Shown here one piece after another: positions 6,159 through 63,776 of a DNA stretch of 64,000 nt. The stretch lies in contig JANLHF010000039.1 in NCBI GenBank assembly GCA_024653825.1, forward strand, positions 6,945-70,944, read 5' to 3'. Source of the DNA: Patescibacteria group bacterium. GTDB lineage: Bacteria; Patescibacteriota; Minisyncoccia; Phycocordibacterales; Phycocordibacteraceae. The notes beneath the pieces are model-generated. The model ran no database searches and was not told where the DNA came from. It was given only the letters and a program-made list of their open reading frames with translations. A program made the position numbers and the translations under genes. Numbering within the stretch: position 1 is the stretch's first letter; every line of letters begins with the position of its first letter.

Positions 6159-6824
6159 ATGAAATTTCACTTAATCACACTTTTCCCCGAGGCCTGTGAC
6201 GCATATTTGAGCGCGTCCATCATCGGTCGCGCGCGGAAGGAAAAAAAGATTTCAATAAAATATCAGAACCCCCGCGACTTCGTCGCGGGGCCGGCGGGTA
6301 GCTATAAGAAGGTAGACGAGAAGCCGTATGGTGGTGGCCCCGGCATGGTAATGATGGCACTTCCAATCGTCAAAGCCGTCCAGAAATCACTTGGGGGTCG
6401 GACCCCCAAGTTGAAGAATCCTGTCATCGTCTGGTTTAAGCCGGGGGCGAAGCAGTTCACCAATAAAGATGCGGACGCGCTCGCGAAATATAGCGACGTG
6501 GTGCTCGTCTGTGGTCGCTACGAGGGCATAGATGAGCGCGCGAAGAAGATTTTAAAAACAATGGCGACAGTAAAAGAATTCGCCGTCGGCGAAGCGGTCT
6601 ACACCGGCGGGGAAGTCCCAGCGCTCGCGATAGTAGACGCCGTCACGCGTCGTCTGCCGGGCGTCCTCGGCAAGGACGCCTCCGTCGAGGAGCGCCGCAT
6701 CGCCTCCTCGGCCGTCTACACCCGTCCCGAAACGATTTCATACAAAGGCAAGAACTATAAAGTGCCAAAGGTCCTCAAAACCGGTCATCACACAAAGATT
6801 GACGCGTGGCGGAAGAAGAAATAA
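6159..6824 (+). CDS. trmD: tRNA (guanine37-N1)-methyltransferase TrmD
   Basis: The YGGGPGMVM motif and the SPOUT C-terminal region are present. The gene contains an in-frame 23-bp palindromic insertion (SLGGRTPKL). Confidence 0.85.
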   Translation: MKFHLITLFPEACDAYLSASIIGRARKEKKISIKYQNPRDFVAGPAGSYKKVDEKPYGGGPGMVMMALPIVKAVQKSLGGRTPKLKNPVIVWFKPGAKQFTNKDADALAKYSDVVLVCGRYEGIDERAKKILKTMATVKEFAVGEAVYTGGEVPALAIVDAVTRRLPGVLGKDASVEERRIASSAVYTRPETISYKGKNYKVPKVLKTGHHTKIDAWRKKK

Positions 6825-18691: not shown

Positions 18692-18805
18692 TGTATCTCC
18701 TTTTCATACATATGCCCGATGTATTCGGGTTGCAGGGAATCCTGCCAAGAACTTCAACCTGCCTCTCTTTATACACCATCTCCATAAATTATCAAGGTAT
18801 CCCCA

Positions 18806-18832
18806 AAGATTGTCCTATAGGACAGAGTTTGG
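18806..18832. repeat. 27-bp direct repeat, copy 1, containing the perfect 14-bp palindrome TGTCCTATAGGACA (putative operator)
   Basis: AAGATTGTCCTATAGGACAGAGTTTGG here and AAGATTGTCCTATAGGACGAAGTTTGG at 19462..19488 flank the wHTH gene. Confidence 0.7.
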
Positions 18833-18857: not shown

Positions 18858-19445
18858 ATGGGAACACTAGAAAAAAGTGCTAAGAAGGAACGGCGATGGG
18901 GAGCGTTTCAACAGGCGATGCTCTACGCCGCACTCGGTGGCATCATGGTCGCTACAGGTGCGGTTCCGGACTTCCGCAAGATTTTGAAATACTATGCGGG
19001 AAGCAAAAAAGACTCTCGTTTCAACTACCGTGCGAAGACGGTACTTGGGCGCCTTGTCGCCAAAGGATTCATCAAGTTTGAAGAGCGTGACGGGAGACGC
19101 TATGCGCGCCTGACTGAAACTGGTAAACGAGTGCTGGACCTGGAGCTGTTGAAAGATGAAGGTGTGCGGAAACCAAAACGTTGGGATAATCGATGGAGAG
19201 TTGTTATTTTCGACATCCCGGAACGTAGACGGAAAGTACGTGTCAATCTGCGCTCTTTTATGGGGAAGTACGGATTTGTAAGATTGCAGGACAGCGTCTG
19301 GATATATCCATACGATTGTGAAGAGCTCATTGCCCTCGCGAAAGCACAGTTCCGTATCGGAGTGGATGTGCTCTATATGATCGTCGAGCGGCTCGAGAAT
19401 GACGCGCCTCTGCGAAAACAATTCGGCTTGCCAGCCGCAACCTGA
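18858..19445 (+). CDS. PaaX-like transcriptional regulator (N-terminal winged helix plus a C-terminal Cas2-like/ferredoxin-like domain)
   Basis: The wHTH region is RLVAKGFIKFEERDGRRYARLTETG. The C-terminal WRVVIFDIPERRRKVRVNLRSFMGKYGFVRLQDSVWIYP resembles Cas2/PaaX_C. Confidence 0.55.
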   Translation: MGTLEKSAKKERRWGAFQQAMLYAALGGIMVATGAVPDFRKILKYYAGSKKDSRFNYRAKTVLGRLVAKGFIKFEERDGRRYARLTETGKRVLDLELLKDEGVRKPKRWDNRWRVVIFDIPERRRKVRVNLRSFMGKYGFVRLQDSVWIYPYDCEELIALAKAQFRIGVDVLYMIVERLENDAPLRKQFGLPAAT

Positions 19446-19461
19446 ATATCAGGTATGACCT

Positions 19462-19488
19462 AAGATTGTCCTATAGGACGAAGTTTGG
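19462..19488. repeat. 27-bp direct repeat, copy 2 (same 14-bp palindrome), immediately after the wHTH gene stop
   Basis: 25 of 27 positions are identical to the copy at 18806..18832. Confidence 0.7.
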
Positions 19489-19562: not shown

Positions 19563-20096
19563 TCAAACGGCCGGGATCATCATCCCGCCCTGGTAAGAAT
19601 GCCAGCCCAGGACTTCTCCGGGTGCTCCCGAGAGTCCCTGCCCTTTTCTCTGGATCTTTTCGTATCCCCTGAAGAAATTCGAGCCCTGGAAGTCGGTACG
19701 GAATGCGGGCTCGACGTCGTTGTGGTAGACGAGGCCTTCGTGAACAAACCCGTCCTGTCCGCGGCCGCCGAAGAATTTCTTCTCGGCGTGAGCGGCACTG
19801 AGCGCCGCCTTGAGGCAGGGAAGGGCTTCCTCCTGGCAGTGGCCGAAGCATTGTAGCGTCCATATCGGTACGTCTTCGTGGGCCATCAGCAACATGCCGA
19901 TGCCACGCGGTCCGAGAGGAGTGAGGATAGAACCGCCCTCGACTGTCCAGGGTCCTTCGGCGAAGTAAGTCCGCGGCATGCCGGCGATGTCGGAATAATC
20001 CGTGTAATCGGGCCCCATCGCTTTGAAGAACATCTCCTCCATTTTGGCGAGGCAGGCAGGCGTCTTTACAAACTCCCCAAGCTCCTCAGTATTCAT
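19563..20096 (-). CDS. Hypothetical protein (177 aa)
   Basis: The ORF has coding-like composition and is followed by the bidirectional terminator. Confidence 0.45.
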   Translation of the reverse strand: MNTEELGEFVKTPACLAKMEEMFFKAMGPDYTDYSDIAGMPRTYFAEGPWTVEGGSILTPLGPRGIGMLLMAHEDVPIWTLQCFGHCQEEALPCLKAALSAAHAEKKFFGGRGQDGFVHEGLVYHNDVEPAFRTDFQGSNFFRGYEKIQRKGQGLSGAPGEVLGWHSYQGGMMIPAV

Positions 20097-20190
20097 TCAC
20101 AGCTCCTTTAGCGCAGTTGTAAGAACTTCGTTGCAGACTTCATTTATACACGATTTATTTGCATCGTCAAATGCCTGCTATACTGCCCAC

Positions 20191-21051
20191 ATGAAGCAGA
20201 AAAGGGCAGTGAGGAACCACGGGAAGAAAAAAAGAGTACCGATTAAGCACTGGAGCCATTCCAGCCTAATGTCCTTCCTAAGGAATCCGCTTGCTTGGTA
20301 CAAGCGCTATGTGGAGGAGATATACGATACGCCGACGACGCCGGCGGCGGTTATCGGCAGCGCGGGGCACCTCGCGCTGGAGCACTATTATTCGGGTGCG
20401 CCCAAGGATATCGCGATACAAAAAGGGTTGGAATACGTGCGCAGTATTGGCGACTTTGAAATTAATTTTGGTCAAGCGAAAAGCAAAGCGGCGCGGCGCG
20501 CGAAGCGCGCCGCGATGGAGGCCGACTATCTACGCGCCATCGGGTATTACCTCGCGCGTCCGCCGAAGCACAAAGTGCTCGGCGTGGAGGTACGGGGTGT
20601 GGTTGAGGTTGAAGGGCTGCCAATCCCCATCAAGGCGATTTCAGACTTGGTGGTGGAATCAAAAGTGGAGAAAGGAGCGGTGGACATTGTGGACCATAAA
20701 TTCGTCGCTTCTTTCAGCAAGGGAGGCGCGGCGAAATCGCTCTTCGTGATTCAGGCACTTTTTAATTACTACACCGTACGGGAGATGTTCGGGAAGCCGG
20801 TCCGGCGCTTTATCGTGTATGAGTGTAAGAAAACAAAGAACGCCGACGGATCCCCGCAGATGCGACGATACGAAATCGATTTCCAGAAGCACGCTCAAGA
20901 TTTCAAAGTCTTCCATCGGCTCATCAACGATGCGACCGAGGAGATTTCGCGCCGGCGCGTGTATCTACCAAACCCCTCCGATATGTTTGAAGGCGACAGT
21001 TCTTTTGATATTTATCGGTTGGAATTAGTTTCCGAGGGCCTGGTCGATTAA
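20191..21051 (+). CDS. PD-(D/E)XK nuclease superfamily protein (RecB/Cas4-like core without an Fe-S cluster)
   Basis: The N-terminal WSHSSLMSFLRNPLAWYKRY and the D...DIVDHK catalytic motifs are present. The start is an internal ATG at 20191, preceded by a TATACT box. Confidence 0.6.
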   Translation: MKQKRAVRNHGKKKRVPIKHWSHSSLMSFLRNPLAWYKRYVEEIYDTPTTPAAVIGSAGHLALEHYYSGAPKDIAIQKGLEYVRSIGDFEINFGQAKSKAARRAKRAAMEADYLRAIGYYLARPPKHKVLGVEVRGVVEVEGLPIPIKAISDLVVESKVEKGAVDIVDHKFVASFSKGGAAKSLFVIQALFNYYTVREMFGKPVRRFIVYECKKTKNADGSPQMRRYEIDFQKHAQDFKVFHRLINDATEEISRRRVYLPNPSDMFEGDSSFDIYRLELVSEGLVD

Positions 21052-24589: not shown

Positions 24590-24877
24590 TTATGGCAGAT
24601 AGGAAGTGAAAAAGAAGGAGCTACCGGAGAGGGTATAAGAAATAAGCACGAACGATATGAGAAGGTGCACGGCCATCGCGGGGAAGGCGATCCACGACGC
24701 ATGAGAATATTTAAGCCAGTGATAGATAGCGACGAGCGTATAAATCGCCCAGAAGATGAAGACGGCGTAGAGCACCCACTCGACAGCAACGCCTAAGGAG
24801 CCCTTGAACTGGAACGGTAACCAATAATCAGAAACGAAATCAGGCGGAGAAAACGGCTGAAGCGGCTGGTCGAGCAT
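24590..24877 (-). CDS. Small hydrophobic membrane protein (95 aa)
   Basis: The ORF is hydrophobic with transmembrane-like segments and is coupled to its neighbours. Confidence 0.35.
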   Translation of the reverse strand: MLDQPLQPFSPPDFVSDYWLPFQFKGSLGVAVEWVLYAVFIFWAIYTLVAIYHWLKYSHASWIAFPAMAVHLLISFVLISYTLSGSSFFFTSYLP

Positions 24878-25671
24878 TACGTATAGGATACAACAATCAC
24901 ACGGGGCTTGCTGTACTGGTCAGTGCGTATCTCGGCCGTGAGGCCCTGTTCCACAAAAAGCGCGGCCGCAGCGGCCGCGTGTCCGCGGTCGCACTCGATC
25001 CACGCGACTCCGCCTTTGGCGAGATGCCTTGGGAGCGCGAGCGCGATGCGGCGGATATAATCGAGTCCGTCATCTCCGGCCATGAGTGCGAGAGAGGGTT
25101 CGTAGTCGGCGACGCTCGGCGGAAGCACATGGCTAGTGGGGACGTAGGGCGGGTTCGTAGCGATGACATCAAATTTCATATCCTCAAATGGTTCAAGGAG
25201 GTCGCCGATGCAAATGTGTGCGTGGCTCTCGTCCAGATTATTTTCTTGAATGTTTTTTAAAATAGTCGCCTTGTGTGCGGGATCGATCTCGCCGAAATAG
25301 ACTTGTGCATTGGGAATCTTCGCGAGCGCCGCACACCCGATGGCGCCGCTCCCTGCACATAAATCAAGGAATTTCAGTTGCTCGCCGGCAGGCCCAAAAG
25401 TGGGCGCGCTCCGGGCCGCTAGGCCAAGTCTTACCCCCACTTTTGGGCCTGCCGGTTCGCTTTTCAACAATTGCTCGGTCCACCACTCAGTCTCGGGGCG
25501 GGGGATGAGTGGCTTGGAATCTAGATAGATTTTCAGACCCAGAAAGGGTTGCCAGCCGATGACGTAGGCCAGCGGCTCGCCTCCGGCGAGCCGCTTCCTA
25601 TCTTCTTCAAAATGGGGGGTTCGTACCCCATCATATTTTTCTTCCAGAAGATGTTGTTCGTCTTTAGTCAT
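24877..25671 (-). CDS. prmC: Release factor glutamine methyltransferase PrmC/HemK
   Basis: It has the NPPY motif and an LDLCAGSGAIG SAM-binding site. It carries an in-frame 72-bp hairpin-element insertion. Confidence 0.85.
   Translation of the reverse strand: MTKDEQHLLEEKYDGVRTPHFEEDRKRLAGGEPLAYVIGWQPFLGLKIYLDSKPLIPRPETEWWTEQLLKSEPAGPKVGVRLGLAARSAPTFGPAGEQLKFLDLCAGSGAIGCAALAKIPNAQVYFGEIDPAHKATILKNIQENNLDESHAHICIGDLLEPFEDMKFDVIATNPPYVPTSHVLPPSVADYEPSLALMAGDDGLDYIRRIALALPRHLAKGGVAWIECDRGHAAAAAALFVEQGLTAEIRTDQYSKPRVIVVSYT
25384..25455. repeat. E2 hairpin element, copy 1, in-frame inside prmC: a 21-bp perfect inverted repeat around a 30-nt conserved core
   Basis: The sequence is gccggcaggcccaaaagtggg - CGCGCTCCGGGCCGCTAGGCCAAGTCTTAC - cccacttttgggcctgccgg. 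The core is shared with the copy at 63436..63466. Confidence 0.7.
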
Positions 25672-31372: not shown

Positions 31373-33076
31373 TTATGCCGAAGGTGCAGGGCGGATGAGG
31401 TCGTGCTTGATATCGGCAAACGTGCCGCCAACCTTCTTGCCGGGGTTGAAAATCCCTTGCGGGTCAAACATCTTTTTCGTTTTTTCAAAAAGTTCTATCA
31501 TTTCTGCACCGAAGAGCATCGGGAGATAGGGCGTGCGCACGATACCGTCATTGTGCTCGCCGGTCGTGGTGCCACCGGCCTCGATAACCATTTTATACAC
31601 CTTGGGCGCGAGGTCGAGAATGACTTGGCGATTCTCCTCCTTGGTGAGGTCCATCAGCGGAATGATGTGAATGTTACCGTCGCCAATGTGGCCCGCAACG
31701 GTATAAATCATATTGTCTTTGTATTCATCGAGAAGAGCATTCAGCTTCGGCAAGAATGTCGGATAACTTGAAGGCGGGACGACGAAGTCGTCGATGAAGG
31801 GCGAGGAGACGAGTCCGTGGAGATTCTTGCGCAAGAGGTTGAAGCTCTCGCGGCGCACTATCCAATACTTCTCTGACTCTTTTTCATTTTTTTCAATCTT
31901 CGTTTGTAAATGCAAGTCGGCCAAGGCCTCCTTGGCCGCCAGAGCTTTAGCGTCGGCGGCTTCGATAGTGTCTTCGGCAAATTCGGCCATTAATATCATC
32001 TTGGGCACACCGCCGGTCGCGACCATCGCCGCCTCGGGGATGAAGTCGATGCCGAGCCGCACCGCCTTTATAAGCCCCATTTGCGAGAGCATTTGGGGCA
32101 TAAACTTCACCGCGAGGGTGAAGGTGTGGTCGTCGTAGCTCTCAAACGATTCGGGCTTCTGGAGCAGAACGCGCCGGACAATCTCGGGAAGGATGTTGAG
32201 GTCGTAGAGGAAGCACACAAGCATCGCACGGTGCTCCTTGGGCTTCACCAACCCGAGCTTCGCCTGCGTCCAGAGCGCGAGCGTGCCTTGCGAGCCGCAG
32301 ACGAGCTTCGCAAGGTTGAAGCTGCCGGCGGTCGAATCTTTCACGCTCCAGAGCGCGTAGCCGGCAGAGTTTTTAGATACCTTCGGTCGGTGGCCTTCAA
32401 TGAGCCCGGCGTTCTCGGTGAGAAGCGCGTCCATCTCGCGATAAATCCCGCCTTCAAGCGTGTTCAACTTTTTCTTTTCTTCTAGTTCTGCGTATGACAG
32501 TGCCTTAAAGGTAGTTTGTGAGCCATCAGAGAGAACGACGTCGACTTCTTCGACATACTTTTCTGTCTTGCCGTACTTCAGTGTGCGCTCGCCGCCGGAA
32601 TTGTTTGCCACGATGCCGCCCATCGCGGCTATCTCGCGCGAGGCGGGGTAGGAGGGGAGTATTAAACCTTTTTCCAGTGTCGCCTTTTCAAAATCCCTAT
32701 AAAACACCCCTGGCTCCGTCACCGCGTACCCGTCAATTTCACTTGGGGGTCGGACCCCCAAGTCAGAAGTGACTTCGCCCATATGATTCATATGCTCGGT
32801 AAAAGAGACCACGACGCCGGTCGTGAGAGGGCCGCCCGACATGTCGGTACCGGCGGAGCGCGCCGCGAGCGAAATTTCAGTACCTCGACTTCGCTCGGCA
32901 CCTACGACGCGAACGAGTTCGGAAACATCGTTCGCGTCTACGGGATACACCACCAGCTCCGGCATCCGCGTAAACAGGGACGTGTCGCGACTAAGCTTCG
33001 CAAGCGTCGCGCCGTCATCACTCACCTCGCCCTTCATCACCCCCTTCAGCGCATTTTTCAAATCTTCTGTGGTCAT
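31373..33076 (-). CDS. FAD-linked oxidase (GlcD/D-lactate dehydrogenase family)
   Basis: It has the FAD_binding_4 N-domain (RSAGTDMSGGPLT) and a C-terminal GGTTTGEHNDGIVR region. The start is an internal ATG at 33076. An in-frame E1 palindrome encodes TSDLGVRPPSE. Confidence 0.8.
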   Translation of the reverse strand: MTTEDLKNALKGVMKGEVSDDGATLAKLSRDTSLFTRMPELVVYPVDANDVSELVRVVGAERSRGTEISLAARSAGTDMSGGPLTTGVVVSFTEHMNHMGEVTSDLGVRPPSEIDGYAVTEPGVFYRDFEKATLEKGLILPSYPASREIAAMGGIVANNSGGERTLKYGKTEKYVEEVDVVLSDGSQTTFKALSYAELEEKKKLNTLEGGIYREMDALLTENAGLIEGHRPKVSKNSAGYALWSVKDSTAGSFNLAKLVCGSQGTLALWTQAKLGLVKPKEHRAMLVCFLYDLNILPEIVRRVLLQKPESFESYDDHTFTLAVKFMPQMLSQMGLIKAVRLGIDFIPEAAMVATGGVPKMILMAEFAEDTIEAADAKALAAKEALADLHLQTKIEKNEKESEKYWIVRRESFNLLRKNLHGLVSSPFIDDFVVPPSSYPTFLPKLNALLDEYKDNMIYTVAGHIGDGNIHIIPLMDLTKEENRQVILDLAPKVYKMVIEAGGTTTGEHNDGIVRTPYLPMLFGAEMIELFEKTKKMFDPQGIFNPGKKVGGTFADIKHDLIRPAPSA

Positions 33077-34055: not shown

Positions 34056-34302
34056 GACAATGTCCTCCCAAAGAAAATCTGTCCAGGGTCATAGTAGAGA
34101 ATCGGATGCAACAAGTCAAAGTGAAGAACAGCCGAAAGACACCTTTCTTCCCACCCTCCAGGGCACGAGTAATTCTTTGAACGGCTCAGACCGTCTGAGG
34201 CGTTTGGCGCCATTATGATACTCTTGCAAAAAATTGGGACTTTGGTACTATCTTAAACGGCTGCATTTTTGGCCGCACTTCAACCAAAGAAGGAGAAGTC
34301 TA

Positions 34303-34827: not shown

Positions 34828-36528
34828 ATGACTCAAGGCGAGGCGCTTACGATTTTAAAAACGGGCGCGAATGTGTATCTCACCGGCGAGCCGGGGAGCG
34901 GGAAGACGTACACCATAAATGAATTCGTCGCGTGGCTGCGCGCCTCGGGCATCGAGCCGTCAGTAACCGCGGCGACCGGTATCGCGGCGACGCACGTCGC
35001 GGGGATGACGCTCCACTCCTGGAGCGGTATCGGTATTAACGAATCGCTCTCCCGCGCCGACGTCGACCGCATCGCGACCAAGGAGCACATCGCGAAACGT
35101 ATTACGAAAGCGAGGGTGCTCATTATTGAGGAAATTTCAATGCTTTCTTCTGCGACATTCGAGATGGCGGACGCTGTTTGCCGCGAGGTGCGTAGAGTCG
35201 ACAAGCCCTTCGGCGGGCTCACAGTCATCTTGGTGGGCGACTTTTTCCAGTTACCACCCGTCTCGCGTAATAGAGAAGTCGCTTTCGCCTATACGTCGCC
35301 GGCCTGGCGCGAATTAAATCTCATCACCTGCTATCTCACCGAGCAGTATCGCCAAGACGACAGTGAATTCCTCAGCGTGCTCTCCGCTATTCGCTCGGGA
35401 GAAGTGGAAGAGATGCACTACGAGCAACTTAGGACACGGCGTGTCCTAAATAAGGAAGAGGAGCCGGCGGATGCGCCAAAACTGTTTTCGCATAATGCCG
35501 ATGTCGATCGCATCAATGCGGCAGAACTTGCAAAACTAAAAGGAACATCGAAGAAATTCAGCATGAGCTCAAAAGGAAAGGATAGTTTCGTGGAGGGACT
35601 GAAGCGCGGCTGTCTCTCGCCTGAGGTGTTGGAGCTGAAGGAGGGCGCGGCGGTGATGTTCACCAAGAACTCGCCCCAAGGGAGATTTGTGAACGGTACG
35701 CTCGGCGTGGTGAGCGGATGGGGTGCTGATGGGGCGCCGATTGTGAAGACAAAAGAGGGGCTACGTATCACGACCGAGCCGATGGAGTGGCAACTTGAAG
35801 AGCAGGGGAAGGTGAAGGCGAGCGTCTCGCAGATACCGCTTCGGCTCGCCTACGCGATGACCGTGCATAAGAGCCAGGGGATGAGTATGGACGCGGCGAT
35901 TATGGATCTCTCGAGAGCCTTTGAATACGGACAGGGTTATGTCGCGCTCTCGCGGGTGCGCCGCCTGAGCGGGGTGTATCTCACGGGGCTCAATCAACGC
36001 GCGCTTGAAGTGCATCCGGAGATTCTTGAAAAAGATAAAGACTTCCGTGCCGCCTCAGAGGCGGCACGCGATGCGTTCGCCCCTCGACCAGACTCGGGGC
36101 AGGCGGGAATGTCTGAAACCGAGAAAATAGCGATGCAGAAGAAATTCGTCAAAGCGATGGGAGGAGCCTGGATGGAAAACACAGGGAGTAGCAAGCAAGG
36201 GGTAGGGAGTAGGAAAAAAGATTCGGCAGGGCTGCCGGGGAGACTGGCAGAGACGTTACAGACCGTGCGCGACGCGAAGAGTTTAAAAGAAGTCGTGAAG
36301 TCGCGCGGGCTCGTCGCCTCGACAATCGTGAAGCATCTGGAGGAGCTCGCAGAGATAGGGAAGCTCGCTCGTTCTGACTTCGCGCATCTCGTCCCCATAG
36401 ACATTGTTGATGAAATCCATGAAGCGCTCAAAGATGAAGACACGGATCGTCTTTCACCGGTATTCCATTCTCTCCACGGCCGGCACTCCTTCGAGACTAT
36501 CCGTCTCGTCCGCCTGATGCGGGATTGA
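34828..36528 (+). CDS. Pif1/RecD-family (AAA_30) DNA helicase
   Basis: It has a Walker A (GEPGSGKT), a TVHKSQGMSMD motif and a C-terminal extension. Confidence 0.8.
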   Translation: MTQGEALTILKTGANVYLTGEPGSGKTYTINEFVAWLRASGIEPSVTAATGIAATHVAGMTLHSWSGIGINESLSRADVDRIATKEHIAKRITKARVLIIEEISMLSSATFEMADAVCREVRRVDKPFGGLTVILVGDFFQLPPVSRNREVAFAYTSPAWRELNLITCYLTEQYRQDDSEFLSVLSAIRSGEVEEMHYEQLRTRRVLNKEEEPADAPKLFSHNADVDRINAAELAKLKGTSKKFSMSSKGKDSFVEGLKRGCLSPEVLELKEGAAVMFTKNSPQGRFVNGTLGVVSGWGADGAPIVKTKEGLRITTEPMEWQLEEQGKVKASVSQIPLRLAYAMTVHKSQGMSMDAAIMDLSRAFEYGQGYVALSRVRRLSGVYLTGLNQRALEVHPEILEKDKDFRAASEAARDAFAPRPDSGQAGMSETEKIAMQKKFVKAMGGAWMENTGSSKQGVGSRKKDSAGLPGRLAETLQTVRDAKSLKEVVKSRGLVASTIVKHLEELAEIGKLARSDFAHLVPIDIVDEIHEALKDEDTDRLSPVFHSLHGRHSFETIRLVRLMRD

Positions 36529-43749: not shown

Positions 43750-44190
43750 ATGGCAAAAAAGAAACCAACATATCCCGCCGCCGCGAGGCCGGAGCCCGCT
43801 TTGGCGAGGAAAAGGCCCGAGGGAGTTCGAGTCGGGAGAGCGAGCGCCGGGCTCGGGCTCTTCGCGACACGACCCTACAAGAAAGGCGAACGTGTCATCG
43901 AGTACGTTGGCCGGACGCTCACGAATGCCGAAGAATATTCAAGCCGCAGTAAGTATCTCTTTGAGGTGAATAAGAGGAAGACCATTGACGGCTCGATGCG
44001 CTCTAACATTGCGCGCTATATCAACCATTCCTGTAAGCCCAATTGTGAGCCGGAAATAGAGAGGGGACGTATTTTTATCGATGCGATTAGGAACATCAAA
44101 GAAGGAGAGGAGTTCGTCTACGACTATGGTGAAGAGTATTTTAATGAACATATCAAGCCCTATGGCTGTCGCTGTGCGAAGCATACGTAA
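43750..44190 (+). CDS. SET-domain protein lysine methyltransferase with a post-SET Cys cluster
   Basis: It has the NHSCKPNC and EEFVYDYG motifs and a C-terminal CRCAKH. Confidence 0.8.
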   Translation: MAKKKPTYPAAARPEPALARKRPEGVRVGRASAGLGLFATRPYKKGERVIEYVGRTLTNAEEYSSRSKYLFEVNKRKTIDGSMRSNIARYINHSCKPNCEPEIERGRIFIDAIRNIKEGEEFVYDYGEEYFNEHIKPYGCRCAKHT

Positions 44191-46647: not shown

Positions 46648-47061
46648 TCAAGGTAGATCAATTTCCTCGCTGTAGGTCGTATAGTCGACGGTCAGCTCCT
46701 CGCCGACCTCGATGTCCTCGATGGCGATGAAATCCTCACGGATCACTCGCATATTCGGACTCGAAGAATGATTCATATGCCACGATTTGGTTGCTTCCTC
46801 GAGACCGTTGTCAGGTATCCAGTAGTATCCCTTCTGGAACGCGCACATATCGTGCACCAGTTTTTTGACCGCTTCCGGCACCCCCCGCAGATCCTCATCC
46901 GATACTCGGATAGAACGAGCGAACGTGCTATCTCCCCTGAAGGGGCTTGTTCCTTCGGGGATCGGCCGTATAGCGAATACGCCGATGCCGTGGATAGGTG
47001 AGGGAGCGAGCCGGGTGAAGACATCGTCCCGCAACTGCTTCAGCAATTTCGTCTTGTTCAT
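46648..47061 (-). CDS. Second SET-domain protein (no post-SET)
   Basis: It has the MNHSSSPNM and GEELTVDY motifs. An AAAGGAG SD lies 8 nt upstream of the ATG at 47061. Confidence 0.7.
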   Translation of the reverse strand: MNKTKLLKQLRDDVFTRLAPSPIHGIGVFAIRPIPEGTSPFRGDSTFARSIRVSDEDLRGVPEAVKKLVHDMCAFQKGYYWIPDNGLEEATKSWHMNHSSSPNMRVIREDFIAIEDIEVGEELTVDYTTYSEEIDLP

Positions 47062-47164
47062 GTCTGCACTCCTTTCTTGTCCGCCTGTCACCATACCACT
47101 TTTCTATAAAAAAGAAATCGCCCCAAGCGCGTGAGCGCAAGGGGCGATGAGGTAACACGAAAGA

Positions 47165-61089: not shown

Positions 61090-61116
61090 GAACGGCTCAG
61101 ACGGTCTGAGCCGTTC
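61090..61116. repeat. E4 27-bp perfect palindrome, GAACGGCTCAGAC-G-GTCTGAGCCGTTC
   Basis: A second copy (GAACGGCTCAGAC-C-GTCTGAGGCGTT) is at 34179..34204. Confidence 0.65.
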
Positions 61117-61378: not shown

Positions 61379-61606
61379 ATGTTTATAAAAGTATTCGTTA
61401 CGCCGAGTGCGAAGCGCGAAAGAATAGACGAAAAGGGCGATGCGTTGCTCGTGGCAGTAAAAGAGCCAGCAATGGGGAATCGCGCGAATACGCGCGTGCG
61501 CGAGATTGTCGCCGCACGGGAAGGTGTGCCGGTGGGGAAGGTGCGCATACTGACAGGACACCGTTCTCGGGTTAAAATGGTAAGTGTTACTAGCCCCGAC
61601 GCTTAG
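61379..61606 (+). CDS. DUF167/YggU-family protein
   Basis: The DUF167 pattern is VKVTPSAKRERI...LLVAVKEPAMGNRAN... Confidence 0.65.
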   Translation: MFIKVFVTPSAKRERIDEKGDALLVAVKEPAMGNRANTRVREIVAAREGVPVGKVRILTGHRSRVKMVSVTSPDA

Positions 61607-61645
61607 TCGGGGCCCCGACTAAGCGTCGGGGCTGATTTTTCCACT
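61596..61645 (+). terminator. 40-bp perfect palindrome (two inverted 20-nt units) followed by a T-tract; strong terminator or cruciform
   Basis: The sequence is gccccgacgcttagtcgggg|ccccgactaagcgtcggggc, then TGATTTTTCC. It overlaps the yggU stop codon. Confidence 0.65.
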
Positions 61646-62008
61646 ATGCATATCACCATCAAGACGACAAAGCTTAAATTAGATCCAGAGACTGAAGCGA
61701 TGGTAGAAGAGAAGCTCGCGGCGCCCCTGCGTCTGCTTGGAGAAGACGGCGATAACGCTCTACTAGAAATAGATGTGGAAGAAGCGCCGCCGGAGGGCCG
61801 CTCGTCAGAGCCGTACCATCTGGTCGCTCGGCTTATCGTAAATGGCGAGGTGTACCACGCCGAAGCAGTGAAGCCGACGCCGGAGAGCGCAGCCGACAGA
61901 GTACGCAGTGAACTAGAGGCAGAAATACGACGCTCGCGCGGGCGCGCACGCAAACTCTGGAAGCGCGGTAGCTCGGCGGTTAAGAATATGTTGCGCTTCG
62001 GCCGTTAG
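61646..62008 (+). CDS. hpf: Ribosome hibernation promoting factor / RaiA family (short form with a basic tail)
   Basis: The N-terminus MHITIKTTKLKLDPETEAMVEEKL is typical of the S30AE family. Confidence 0.8.
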   Translation: MHITIKTTKLKLDPETEAMVEEKLAAPLRLLGEDGDNALLEIDVEEAPPEGRSSEPYHLVARLIVNGEVYHAEAVKPTPESAADRVRSELEAEIRRSRGRARKLWKRGSSAVKNMLRFGR

Positions 62009-62856
62009 CCTTTGTATTCCGTTTCGCGTTTGCCTTCGGGAATGACGCGCAGGACACGGAAAACGCCCGCGGCGTTTTCCGCGGAGATGATTTTCATACG
62101 CTTTCCGTTTTCAAAGAAATACGTGCCGATGCTGTCAGCGTAGGCACGATACTTGTTCCAGTTTTCTTGTGCGGGCGCAGTGAGGTCGAGAAGACCGTCT
62201 TCTTTTGCGAGTTTACGCGCGCGCGAAGCGCGCGCGGCGTCCTGGGCGACTGGCGTAATCTCATCGCGTTCAAATACAGGGAGTGTAGTGGTGAGAAGCG
62301 TTGCGCCCATCTCGATGAGTCGCGGGCGCAGTTCACGCGCAGTCTCGTCAGGCACTATCGTCGTTTTTTCTTGTGCGAGGATGTCGCCCGCATCAAGCTC
62401 GCGCACCATTTTCTGTATCGTCACACCGGTCTCAGCTTCGCCCATGAGAAGCGCGGTCTCGAGCGGCGTTGCGCCACGATACTTCGGTAGGAGCGAGTAG
62501 TGCACATTTAAAACGCCTTTCGGGAATGTGGCGATAAGCGCCTCGGGAAATATTTTTCCGTAGGCGACGACGACGGCGTAGTCAGTGTGCTGCGACGCGA
62601 TTGCCGCAATCGCGACGTCATCCAATTTTTCTGGCGTGAGGACTGGAATAGTGTGCGCGAGCGCGAGCTCCTTGGTGAGCGAAGGGGTGAGCGCGAGGCC
62701 ACGTCCTTTTGGCGCGTCCGGAGACGTCACGACAAGTGTCGGTATAAAACCGTGTTCGATTAGAAGCGCGAGCGTGTCGCTTGCGACCTTCGGCGTGCCA
62801 AAATAGACGAAGCGAAGCGAGCCCCTTTGTTGGGCGAACTTATGCGACTGCGGCAT
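62005..62856 (-). CDS. fmt: Methionyl-tRNA formyltransferase
   Basis: The HYSLLPKYRGATP motif is present. The gene overlaps the def stop, giving a def-fmt operon. Confidence 0.85.
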   Translation of the reverse strand: MPQSHKFAQQRGSLRFVYFGTPKVASDTLALLIEHGFIPTLVVTSPDAPKGRGLALTPSLTKELALAHTIPVLTPEKLDDVAIAAIASQHTDYAVVVAYGKIFPEALIATFPKGVLNVHYSLLPKYRGATPLETALLMGEAETGVTIQKMVRELDAGDILAQEKTTIVPDETARELRPRLIEMGATLLTTTLPVFERDEITPVAQDAARASRARKLAKEDGLLDLTAPAQENWNKYRAYADSIGTYFFENGKRMKIISAENAAGVFRVLRVIPEGKRETEYKG

Positions 62857-63409
62857 GGTGGATGTGGATAAGATTCTCCGCGTGGTCGACGAAGAGGACG
62901 CCGTTGAGATGATCGATTTCGTGCTCGAATATCTGCGCTATGAGCCCGCCGCCCCCGCGCTCAAACTTTGTGCCGTCGACGCGACGCGCGCAGACGGTCA
63001 CGCGCTCGTGCCTATTGGTTGTGCCGTACACGCCGCGGACGGAAAGACACCCCTCATCCGCCTTCGCGCGTTTGCGGGAGGTCTTCACAATCTCCGGATT
63101 GATATACACTTCAACCTCAGCACTTGGGGGTCCGACCCCCAAGTCTGACTTGGGGGTCGGACCCCCAAGTGGAGCTTCGGGAAGAGGTGGTAGGGTGCGA
63201 TCTTTCCGCACGATGAAGATGCGATAGGGAATGCCGATCTGTGGTGCGGCGAGCGCGACACCCTCGAGTTCAGGATCGAGCGCTTCGGTCATATCGTCAA
63301 TAATCTTTGCGAGCTTTGGCGTATCGAAAAACTCCTCGGGCACCGGCTCGGCCGTCCCGCGGAGCACCTCGGCACCGTCTTGCACGATTTCTTTCATGTC
63401 GTTTAGCAT
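62840..63409 (-). CDS. def: Peptide deformylase
   Basis: It has the three deformylase motifs GVALAAPQIG, EGCLS and HEIDHLNG. A tandem in-frame E1 palindrome pair encodes LGGPTPKSDLGVGPPS in a surface loop. Confidence 0.85.
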   Translation of the reverse strand: MLNDMKEIVQDGAEVLRGTAEPVPEEFFDTPKLAKIIDDMTEALDPELEGVALAAPQIGIPYRIFIVRKDRTLPPLPEAPLGGPTPKSDLGVGPPSAEVEVYINPEIVKTSRKRAKADEGCLSVRGVYGTTNRHERVTVCARRVDGTKFERGGGGLIAQIFEHEIDHLNGVLFVDHAENLIHIHHAAVA

Positions 63410-63416
63410 AGCTCGT

Positions 63417-63487
63417 CGGCAAAGCAAAATAAAGGCCGCGCTCCGGGCCACTAGGTCAAGTCTTACTACCTTTATTTTACTTTGCCG
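63417..63487. repeat. E2 hairpin element, copy 2 (intergenic, immediately upstream of def): a 19-bp inverted repeat around the conserved core
   Basis: The sequence is cggcaaagcaaaataaagg - CCGCGCTCCGGGCCACTAGGTCAAGTCTTAC - ta - cctttattttactttgccg. Confidence 0.7.
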
Positions 63488-63491
63488 CTCA

Positions 63492-63776
63492 CTAATGTTT
63501 CGTCGGGTCGAGCTCCCACCAGAATTTTTTGCCAAAGTTTTTTGCCTGACTGCAGACACTCTTTAAATAATACAAATCTTGGGTCGGGATTTTCTCCAGC
63601 ACCGTGCCGAGGTGTGCCATCGTCATCGGCGCGAGGCCGTCATTTGCACGAGAGTGATTCAAATGGCGGAGAAAGAATCGCATCATCTCGCCACGTTCGG
63701 TCTGGCGCTTCCTCCCCTTGGGCGCTTCCGCCCGTTTCTTTTCAAACTCGGGGAGTATGTCGCCGATGGATTTCAT
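63492..63776 (-). CDS. Hypothetical small protein (94 aa)
   Basis: ORF between murA and def. Confidence 0.35.
   Translation of the reverse strand: MKSIGDILPEFEKKRAEAPKGRKRQTERGEMMRFFLRHLNHSRANDGLAPMTMAHLGTVLEKIPTQDLYYLKSVCSQAKNFGKKFWWELDPTKH

Follow-up and report, generated by a model that had tools for sequence, protein, structure and literature searches.

Two described kinds of repeat appear, by analogy, to behave most like the element reported here: the Rickettsia palindromic elements (RPEs), which are tolerated in frame in host-dependent bacteria, and the REP/REPIN repeats, which are hairpin-forming, strand-specific, and persistent. The element, E2, occurs twice in a 64,000-nucleotide (nt) stretch of Patescibacteria DNA (assembly GCA_024653825.1, contig JANLHF010000039.1, positions 6,945 to 70,944, forward strand), which we call the window and number from its first base. 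One copy lies inside prmC and the other upstream of def. A first-pass annotation of the window had proposed either a hairpin-forming mobile element or an attC-like recombination site. The first proposal was borne out: E2 is present at 118 or more loci, with recent near-identical copies, presence, absence, and inversion at a single prmC site, and nested and tandem variants. E2 has been mobile recently and persists for long periods; its loop is invariant, its stem covaries freely, its folding strand is fixed, and it makes no target-site duplication.

REP/REPIN repeats and their RAYT partners resemble E2 in several respects. Both are short, non-autonomous hairpin repeats with many dispersed copies and long vertical persistence; one strand is recognized in its folded form and no target site is duplicated. 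A conserved GTAG-type tetranucleotide stands at the foot of the small, imperfect REP hairpin, and GUAR stands at the foot of the E2 apical module. However, REP arms are conserved around a short, variable loop, whereas E2 arms vary even within a genome, the loop and a few inner pairs being all that the copies share. Thus, with a conserved loop and free arms, E2 has an architecture inverse to that of REPs. REPs are extragenic while E2 is also found in frame within genes, and the copy density of E2 is much lower. RAYT, a Y1 HUH enzyme, was not seen near the listed E2 copies (at least 118) nor in the 0.93 Mb around them, searched with approximate queries.

RPEs, like E2, are palindromic and of similar size, occupy both intergenic positions and tolerated in-frame positions in housekeeping genes, have no known transposase, and inhabit a reduced-genome, host-dependent bacterium. 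Their phylum is different (Rickettsiales versus Patescibacteria), and the likeness is by analogy only; the invariant loop, the strand-specific G.U bias, and sharp-ended recent copies are shown here for E2. IS200/IS605-type hairpins and other HUH-handled hairpins (rolling-circle and CRESS-virus origins) share with E2 strand specificity, a conserved loop or nick region, covarying stems, and the lack of a target-site duplication. E2, however, is a single hairpin without an adjacent gene, and its loop of 29–31 nt is far larger than their nonanucleotide. The Correia/NEMIS miniature inverted-repeat transposable elements are also small and non-autonomous, with hairpin-forming inverted-repeat ends, and are co-transcribed with neighboring genes, but E2 lacks their target-site duplication and its "inverted repeats" differ from copy to copy. 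No parent insertion sequence related to E2 was found in the window or the loci.

Structure and distribution of the E2 hairpin

The window contains the 30-nt core CGCGCTCCGGGCCRCTAGGYCAAGTCTTAC exactly two times, both on the plus strand, at 25405-25434 and 63437-63466, with two positions differing between them. Shuffled sequence gave no match and the chance expectation is 0, so the two copies with a common core described in the first-pass annotation are real. The strand that folds, called sense here, is the complementary one; on the minus strand of the window the near-invariant apical module reads GUAAGACUUGGCCUAGCGGCCCGGAGCGC. Both copies are sense to their genes, prmC and def. The features are as follows.

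25385 to 25455, minus strand: E2 copy 1, the whole 71-nt hairpin, in frame within prmC, its sense strand being the minus strand of the window (covariance model R1, 84.4 bits, E = 1.6e-22)
25436 to 25455, minus strand: 5' arm of copy 1 in E2 sense, CCGGCAGGCCCAAAAGUGGG, pairing with 25385-25404 by 20/20 Watson-Crick pairs
25405 to 25435, minus strand: apical module of copy 1, the 31-nt loop between the two 20-nt arms, sense GGUAAGACUUGGCCUAGCGGCCCGGAGCGCG, containing the inner hairpin GGCC-UAGC-GGCC
25385 to 25404, minus strand: 3' arm of copy 1 in E2 sense
63417 to 63487, minus strand: E2 copy 2, a 71-nt hairpin between a 94-residue open reading frame (ORF) and def (R1, 70.7 bits, E = 2.2e-18)
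63436 to 63468, minus strand: apical module of copy 2, with two substitutions, G6>A (one inner pair lost) and tetraloop UAGC>UAGU
63469 to 63487, minus strand: 5' arm of copy 2 in E2 sense, partner 63417-63435, with one G.U at 63479/63425
24877 to 25671, minus strand: prmC (release-factor glutamine methyltransferase), 264 residues, with the insert at about residues 72-96, between a helix (59-71) and a strand (100-103)
62840 to 63409, minus strand: def (peptide deformylase), likely start ATG 63409, 8 nt past the base of copy 2
63492 to 63776, minus strand: 94-residue ORF without a match in Pfam; its stop codon (TAG) is 4 nt before copy 2
25375 to 25383 and 25468 to 25476, minus strand: GAGCAAYTG direct repeat, present but no general feature of the family

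Both hairpins fold better than their shuffles (z-scores of -4.3 to -7.5), and the only E2 matches of R1 in the window are these two copies, the remaining matches being generic palindromes. The perfect complementarity of the arms, as first described, applies to copy 1; the 19-nt arms of copy 2 contain a single C.A opposition on the plus strand, which is a G.U pair on the minus strand. The 14 stem bases said to be completely different between the copies are in fact identical at 6 of 14 positions when aligned, and the differences are mostly transitions. The family consensus form CCGGCAAG..GAAAAAG.G.G is ancestral to both copies. Copy 1 is indeed in frame in prmC and codes EPAGPKVGVRLGLAARSAPTFGPAG, a peptide of 25 residues rather than the 24 codons first counted. 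Copy 2 lies just upstream of def, as had been noted, and fills the 82-nt spacer between the stop of the 94-residue ORF (TAG, 63492) and the def start; bearing on that start, the def ortholog at locus L113 begins MKEIVQDG.

The window holds two E2 copies per 64 kb, and the family extends well beyond it. We scanned one genome per prokaryotic species for an exact match to 20 specified loop bases; the family figures given here come from the matches listed. At least 118 loci were found, so the two window copies are not the only ones, and every named record among them belongs to Patescibacteria, for which another name is candidate phyla radiation (CPR). The named hosts are Paceibacterota/Parcubacteria, Kaiser-, Adler-, and Nomurabacteria, Minisyncoccia, Saccharibacteria (including Nanosyncoccus and ruminant-gut isolates), and Peribacteria; among the matches listed, several genomes contribute 3–9 loci each. 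Some loci from third-party assemblies labeled "uncultured Candidatus Saccharibacteria" (L001, L109, and others) have flanks 68–75% identical to those of Paceibacterota-labeled orthologs. Some of these taxon labels are therefore probably wrong, and it is the better-named records (Nanosyncoccus, RGIG isolates, Kaiser-, Adler-, and Nomurabacteria) that support a spread of E2 across classes.

A covariance-model search returned 107 hits, 5 of them divergent or degenerate. E2 had no match in 2.9 million viral contigs and, by blastn, none in PLSDB plasmids or GenBank phages. In Rfam 15, a scan of the window at the gathering threshold returned tRNA-Asn only, and a scan of three E2-bearing loci at E values up to 10 returned nothing at the element. 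A metagenome scan for inner-hairpin variants with GTAAGACTTG-N10-CCCGGAGCGC gave 5 chance matches and no E2, and so carries no information on the family. No earlier description of E2 turned up in the full-text literature searched by core sequence and for CPR repeats, subscription journals not being covered.

Across the family, E2 is about 70–125 nt long, with a stem of 20–40 bp that differs between copies. A loop-anchored alignment of 116 copies gives the module, read on the complement of the core, as G U A A GACUUGGCCUAGCGGCCCGGAG C G C. From the outer stem upward, it consists of a purine-rich internal loop (UAAGA/AGC), two pairs (CU/GG), and the inner hairpin GGCC-UAGC-GGCC, which is invariant across the sample. 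The inner helix is backed by divergent copies, with GGGC...GCCC in L021:4125-4209 and GACC...UCGGAG (U.G to C-G) in L117. Seven positions lie outside the search pattern; among them G-4, U-3, C22, G23, and C24 are each at least 95% conserved. Positions -2/-1 vary (AA, AG, UA, GA). A second loop type, GUUGAAUYGGCCUAGCGGCCCGAGCGC, was observed at L058:1703-1785 and L078:5321-5403 (minus), beside the canonical loop in both genomes, and a further variant at L104 (GAUUU...UGGAG).

The stem covaries. All 23 outer-stem pairs change on both sides in an alignment of 113 sequences, so the covariation with preserved structure that was proposed from two copies holds at every pair tested. Paired cells amount to 81.1%, versus 55.3% after shuffling (0 of 500 shuffles reached 81.1%) and at most 49.3% when the 3' partner was slid out of register; the covariation score was 0.603 versus 0.164. 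Conservation falls outward from the loop, and subfamilies share their inner 8–12 pairs, for example GAAAAAGUGGG...CACACUUUUUC or CGAGGGAG...CUCCCGAG. Many copies have a flanking A-tract and U-tract around the GC-rich top of the stem. GA...GA often brackets the helix ends (32 and 33 of the 116 copies); we rejected a 2-bp target duplication as its origin, and the pattern fits tandem G.A oppositions at helix ends. A hand check for a kink-turn or sarcin-ricin motif in the loop found that the strands misfit the consensus.

Sense core positions -3 to -1 (window 25437-25435 and 63469-63467, minus strand) form a stop triplet, UAA, UAG, or UGA, in 76 of 95 copies, and 13 more have UUA+G (= UAG). Some long sense ORFs seem to end at this in-loop stop (L001, L071, L093). 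The triplet could be a chance outcome of the purine preference or a selected feature.

Folding strand, movement, and the prmC site

The sense (GUAAGAC...) strand folds better than its complement in 105 of 116 copies. We scored 20 stem positions in the 76 in-register copies and counted 1353 Watson-Crick pairs, 81 oppositions of the G.U type, 10 of the A.C type, and 76 others. The 8:1 excess of G.U over A.C is not explained by base composition or symmetric mutation and thus indicates selection for folding of the sense strand. All arrangements of the flanking genes show the bias equally, as do copies inside ORFs in either orientation, and it is also seen in an inverted prmC copy. The folding strand is thus fixed relative to the loop and independent of the strand of the host mRNA. 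Orientation relative to genes is near random: <E< 26, >E> 20, >E< 19, and <E> 13. Long ORFs contain 19 of 101 classified copies (8 sense, 11 antisense), and ORF ends abut the hairpin alike in sense and antisense (46 versus 42 of 95).

Three candidate functions were rejected on this setting. A replication-oriented site such as Chi or KOPS is at odds with a link to strand skew that is only weak and with opposite orientations 3.2 kb apart; an independent small-RNA gene with its own promoter is at odds with the lack of any excess of -10-like hexamers upstream in sense (32 versus 30 of 111 copies); and a recoding signal, such as a selenocysteine insertion sequence, is at odds with upstream stops of three kinds at variable distance.

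Copies within one genome are more alike than copies from different genomes. The mean identity of the 5' arm (26 nt) is 0.51 within genomes versus 0.34 between genomes, and 14 of 90 within-genome arm pairs reach an identity of at least 0.7, versus 37 of 6351 between genomes. Four within-genome pairs at unrelated loci are near-identical across the hairpin only, their homology stopping at its base. L048 and L084, 196 kb apart on chromosome OY970216.1, share 75 nt with one difference; L038/L079 share 112 nt, L066/L099 87 nt, and L071/L110 79 nt. The flanks of these four pairs contain neither a target-site duplication nor a common target motif. L048 and L084 have three G.U pairs and one mismatch in common, showing that both arms were copied unchanged and not rebuilt from each other or from the target. 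We had considered that stems might be copied from the target site, but this was rejected because recent copies share both arms, G.U positions included.

Old copies keep their structure. In seven sets of orthologous copies, with flanks 56–87% identical, stem divergence is similar to that of the flanks and pairing is kept, as in the change from GG/CC to AA/TT between L024 and L040. Orthologous stems that still pair have diverged by 35–50%.

Some copies are rearranged. L030:1778-1946 is a partial tandem duplication of the core and 3' arm with an 84-nt period, and L051 has a partial extra 5' copy directly upstream of its full element. At L075:1202-1298 (minus), a 16-nt palindrome, TCCGCCAGCTGGCGGA, is nested in the E2 loop and interrupts the inner hairpin; other sequences are nested in the loop in the PrmC homologs P0010, P0074, and P0035.

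The prmC site shows E2 in a protein alignment. Among the 120 closest PrmC homologs (P0001-P0120), the linker from PETEWW to LDLCAGSG (window residues 64-102) ranges from 15 to 67 residues. At least 28 of the 120 have the decapeptide coded by the loop, V(R/G)LGLAARSA, at one shared site and in one shared frame; about 10 more are one residue off (for example L to Q, a tetraloop change), and about 6 are degenerate or have nested inserts. The flanks of the peptide, coded by the stem, vary freely. Three homologs instead code ALRAARPS(L/P)T, the other strand of the core, and in the DNA of L123 and L124 all of E2 lies in reverse orientation at this prmC site, with stems homologous to those of the sense copy in L125. 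An inversion of the whole hairpin via recombination or template switching between the arms is easy to picture. Orthologs without the insert were found among the close homologs: P0013 (L119) and P0046 (L122) are as close as those with it. On a neighbor-joining PrmC tree of 102 tips, which is weakly resolved, the presence of E2 needs 26 changes, versus 30.8 with shuffled labels, a result that fits either high turnover or poor resolution.

Many PrmC homologs thus do share the segment, which would have suited a conserved protein sequence; however, only the decapeptide is shared, in both orientations, and equally close homologs lack it. It is therefore the nucleotide element that is conserved and not a protein domain. 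In five prmC copies read as DNA, the loop is identical but for A/G at position -1, upstream codons differ at third positions, and the PrmC proteins are 66–74% identical to that of the window. In the AlphaFold2 model, insert residues 74-95 form a coil, with a confidence score (pLDDT) under 50, that lies between helix 59-71 and the first methyltransferase strand; copy 1 is thus predicted to be a tolerated 25-residue surface loop of PrmC. The GAGCAAYTG repeat that had been taken for a flanking duplication exists, but the conserved end of the TEQLL helix supplies its left half, and its right half comes partly from the GGC-GAR boundary of the element; we therefore do not read it as a target-site duplication, and the four recent pairs have none. 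The same linker also receives unrelated insert families, SGRPKGGDPRTFA, ERDDASQSNFS...KY, and TLRSATARAGGTFS, and may be called an insertion hot spot; the "empty" ortholog L119 has a small linker palindrome, GTTAGGACA-TCGGA-TGTCCTAAC.

Explanations for E2

Taken together, these results suggest, on balance and with some reserve, that E2 is a dispersed family of non-autonomous hairpin repeats handled as a single strand by a factor acting in trans. The whole hairpin is the copied unit, and its new sites are unrelated to one another, in either orientation, between genes or in frame within them. In the proposed mechanism, recognition and copying would take place on a single strand of fixed polarity, most likely single-stranded DNA (ssDNA). 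The stem would present the loop, a putative binding or nicking site, to a loop-reading enzyme encoded elsewhere in the genome. Our favored guess for this enzyme is a HUH/Y1-type nickase-transposase or a relaxase-like protein, because such chemistry is strand-specific and hairpin-dependent and leaves no duplication.

Several observations weigh against this proposal. A purely selfish copy would be expected to decay once inserted, yet old copies keep the loop, the pairing, and the G.U bias, which argues for selection or drive in place. The enzyme itself did not appear: a Pfam scan of 50 window ORFs gave no transposase, integrase, HUH, or Nop domain, and the families recurring around the listed loci (at least 118) are housekeeping genes only, so the linked recombinase or transposase that the first-pass annotation had suggested looking for was found in neither place. 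The recurring neighbors, identified by reading their sequences, are IleRS-like, LepA, TsaD, FtsA, PriA, DnaX, LigA, SmpB, ComEC, RpoD, and def-fmt. A phmmer search of the 0.93 Mb around E2 copies, with approximate IS608, IS200, and RAYT queries, returned a single Y1 transposase, an IS200 TnpA whose end hairpins are unrelated to E2. If ssDNA were handled at the replication fork, copies should be strongly biased in orientation, but the trend is weak (local GC skew negative in the sense orientation at 66 of 103 loci, p = 0.0055) and two copies 3.2 kb apart on one chromosome have opposite orientations. Sequence alone does not separate handling as RNA from handling as ssDNA. Finally, the invariance of the loop is partly built in, since retrieval needed an exact match to 20 of its bases; the seven flanking positions, the covariance-model search, and the PrmC peptides are free of that bias.

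The TnpA just mentioned lies at L081:3944-4402. It is of the IS200 type, with the HUH motif HVHFL and the tyrosine in GYYINTVG, and the hairpin CGCAGC-TCT-GCTGCG stands on both sides of it; a cut E2 is about 3.9 kb away.

A more far-reaching version of the proposal is possible but tentative. Rather than being merely selfish DNA in decay, E2 may be the cis-partner of a Patescibacteria-wide, strand-specific nucleic-acid machine, in which a loop-reading protein (HUH/relaxase-like or a domesticated transposase) would keep the loop and the pairing in place over very long times by copying, conversion, or nicking. Such a partnership could be REPIN-RAYT-like with inverted architecture, an invariant loop and a free stem. 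Alternatively, E2 copies may be dispersed entry points resembling origins of transfer (oriT) that mobilize chromosomal DNA; in that case, DNA could be mobilized between naturally competent, epibiotic bacteria.

Among the rivals to a trans-handled hairpin repeat, a function for the host survives best, and we regard it as conceivable though rather doubtful. A conserved Patescibacteria protein or RNA would bind the folded E2-sense strand, as RNA or ssDNA, and mobility would only spread the binding sites, in a domesticated or mutualistic relation of the kind proposed for REPIN-RAYT. A near-invariant loop across lineages labeled Paceibacteria/Parcubacteria, Saccharibacteria (including Nanosyncoccus), and Peribacteria is what such a site would show. 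So are pairing kept after 35–50% stem divergence in orthologs, a G.U:A.C ratio of 81:10 in standing copies, old ones included, the small share of divergent or degenerate covariance-model hits (5 of 107), and five prmC loops that are the same but for A/G at -1 in proteins only 66–74% identical to that of the window. However, orientation bears no relation to how the flanking genes are transcribed (<E< 26, >E> 20, >E< 19, <E> 13), there is no promoter signal in sense (32 versus 30 of 111), and copies of either orientation lie within coding regions. The element is absent from many close PrmC orthologs, no Rfam family matches it, and its density in the window is low (2 per 64 kb).

A transcription terminator or an mRNA 3'-stabilizing hairpin is very unlikely. 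Many copies do abut gene 3' ends, and many have the A-tract and U-tract around a GC-rich stem top, but ORF ends abut E2 equally in sense and antisense (46 versus 42 of 95), E2 shows no preference for convergent over divergent spacers (19 versus 13), and about 16% of copies are within ORFs. The hairpin is not followed by a free U-tract, neither window copy was called terminator-like, and a terminator would leave the sequence-invariant loop unexplained.

The attC-like site of an integron-type system, the second suggestion of the first-pass annotation, fares no better and we consider it highly improbable. attC sites are also folded single-strand substrates: like E2, they are strand-specific imperfect hairpins whose structure outlasts the sequence of the stem. 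But E2 has no R''/R' sites: RYYYAAC/GTTRRRY is missing from its base, which reads CCGGCA...TGCCGG, and the 3' neighbor GTTCGCT fails GTTRRRY. Its loop is conserved where attC loops are variable. E2 copies are solitary, in or beside housekeeping genes and not in a cassette array, and a scan of 50 window ORFs gave no integrase domain. Strand-specific folding is clear in E2, though no conserved extrahelical bases of the attC type were identified.

Very little weight can be given to the idea that E2 is a stem-loop guide from a system of the TIGR-Tas type. CPR genomes carry Tas proteins with hairpin arrays that have conserved motifs in their loops (PMC12045711), and the tandem G.A oppositions of E2 recall box C/D; however, E2 copies are dispersed singly and not arrayed beside a Nop-domain gene, no Nop domain was found in the 50 window ORFs scanned, and the E2 loop is invariant along its full length, with no variable spacers.

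An ordinary conserved PrmC segment, or chance similarity, can be dismissed: at least 28 of 120 PrmC homologs do contain V(R/G)LGLAARSA, but the same nucleotides occur in non-coding DNA and at 118 or more other loci, are inverted at the same site to code ALRAARPS, are missing from equally close homologs, and code a segment modeled as disordered, and the chance expectation for the core is 0.

Other palindromes of the window and significance of E2

The window contains other palindromes. The E1 family (CTTGGGGGTCSGACCCCCAAG) has four copies, at 6390-6410, 32742-32762, 63123-63143, and 63149-63169; the last two lie back to back in the def ORF, in frame, and code ...LGGPTPKSDLGVGPPS... E1 has GACTTGG / CCAAGTC in common with the E2 loop, in agreement with the CCAAGTC first reported as shared by the E2 core and the flank of E1. 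E1 was found in none of 130 other loci and is therefore lineage-specific, unlike E2. Two sites far apart, 34179-34204 and 61091-61116, carry the same 26-nt palindrome, GAACGGCTCAGACCGTCTGAGSCGTT. Just upstream of an ORF with a ribosome hibernation factor S30AE domain (61646-62008), at 61592-61633, is a perfect 42-nt palindrome (AGCCCCGACGCTTAGTCGGGG / complement). Two 38-nt direct repeats, 87% identical (18795-18832 and 19451-19488) and each with the palindrome TGTCCTATAGGACA, flank a 195-residue ORF with a PaaX/Cas2-like domain (18858-19445). The window also codes two SET-domain proteins within 3 kb (43750-44190 and 46648-47094), a PIF1-type helicase (34828-36528), and a PD-(D/E)XK nuclease (20023-21051).

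As judged from sequence comparison, what appears to be new in E2 is a hairpin repeat with a conserved loop and free arms; in-frame palindromic repeats and REPIN-like behavior were already known. E2 disrupts assemblies and lengthens predicted proteins, by 24–28 residues in PrmC, and E2-spanning ORFs elsewhere include an apparent aminoacyl-tRNA synthetase. It also provides a sequence marker for Patescibacteria and, with its hundreds of independent stems, a natural example of evolution that preserves structure.

A large part of bacterial diversity belongs to Patescibacteria, whose tiny genomes leave little space for junk, and we know of few cis-elements or mobile elements described in them. The near-invariant 29-nt loop, copying without target duplication, and one fixed folding strand imply a conserved partner protein. 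Such a protein, if found, would reveal a new transposition, recombination, or RNA/ssDNA-binding system.

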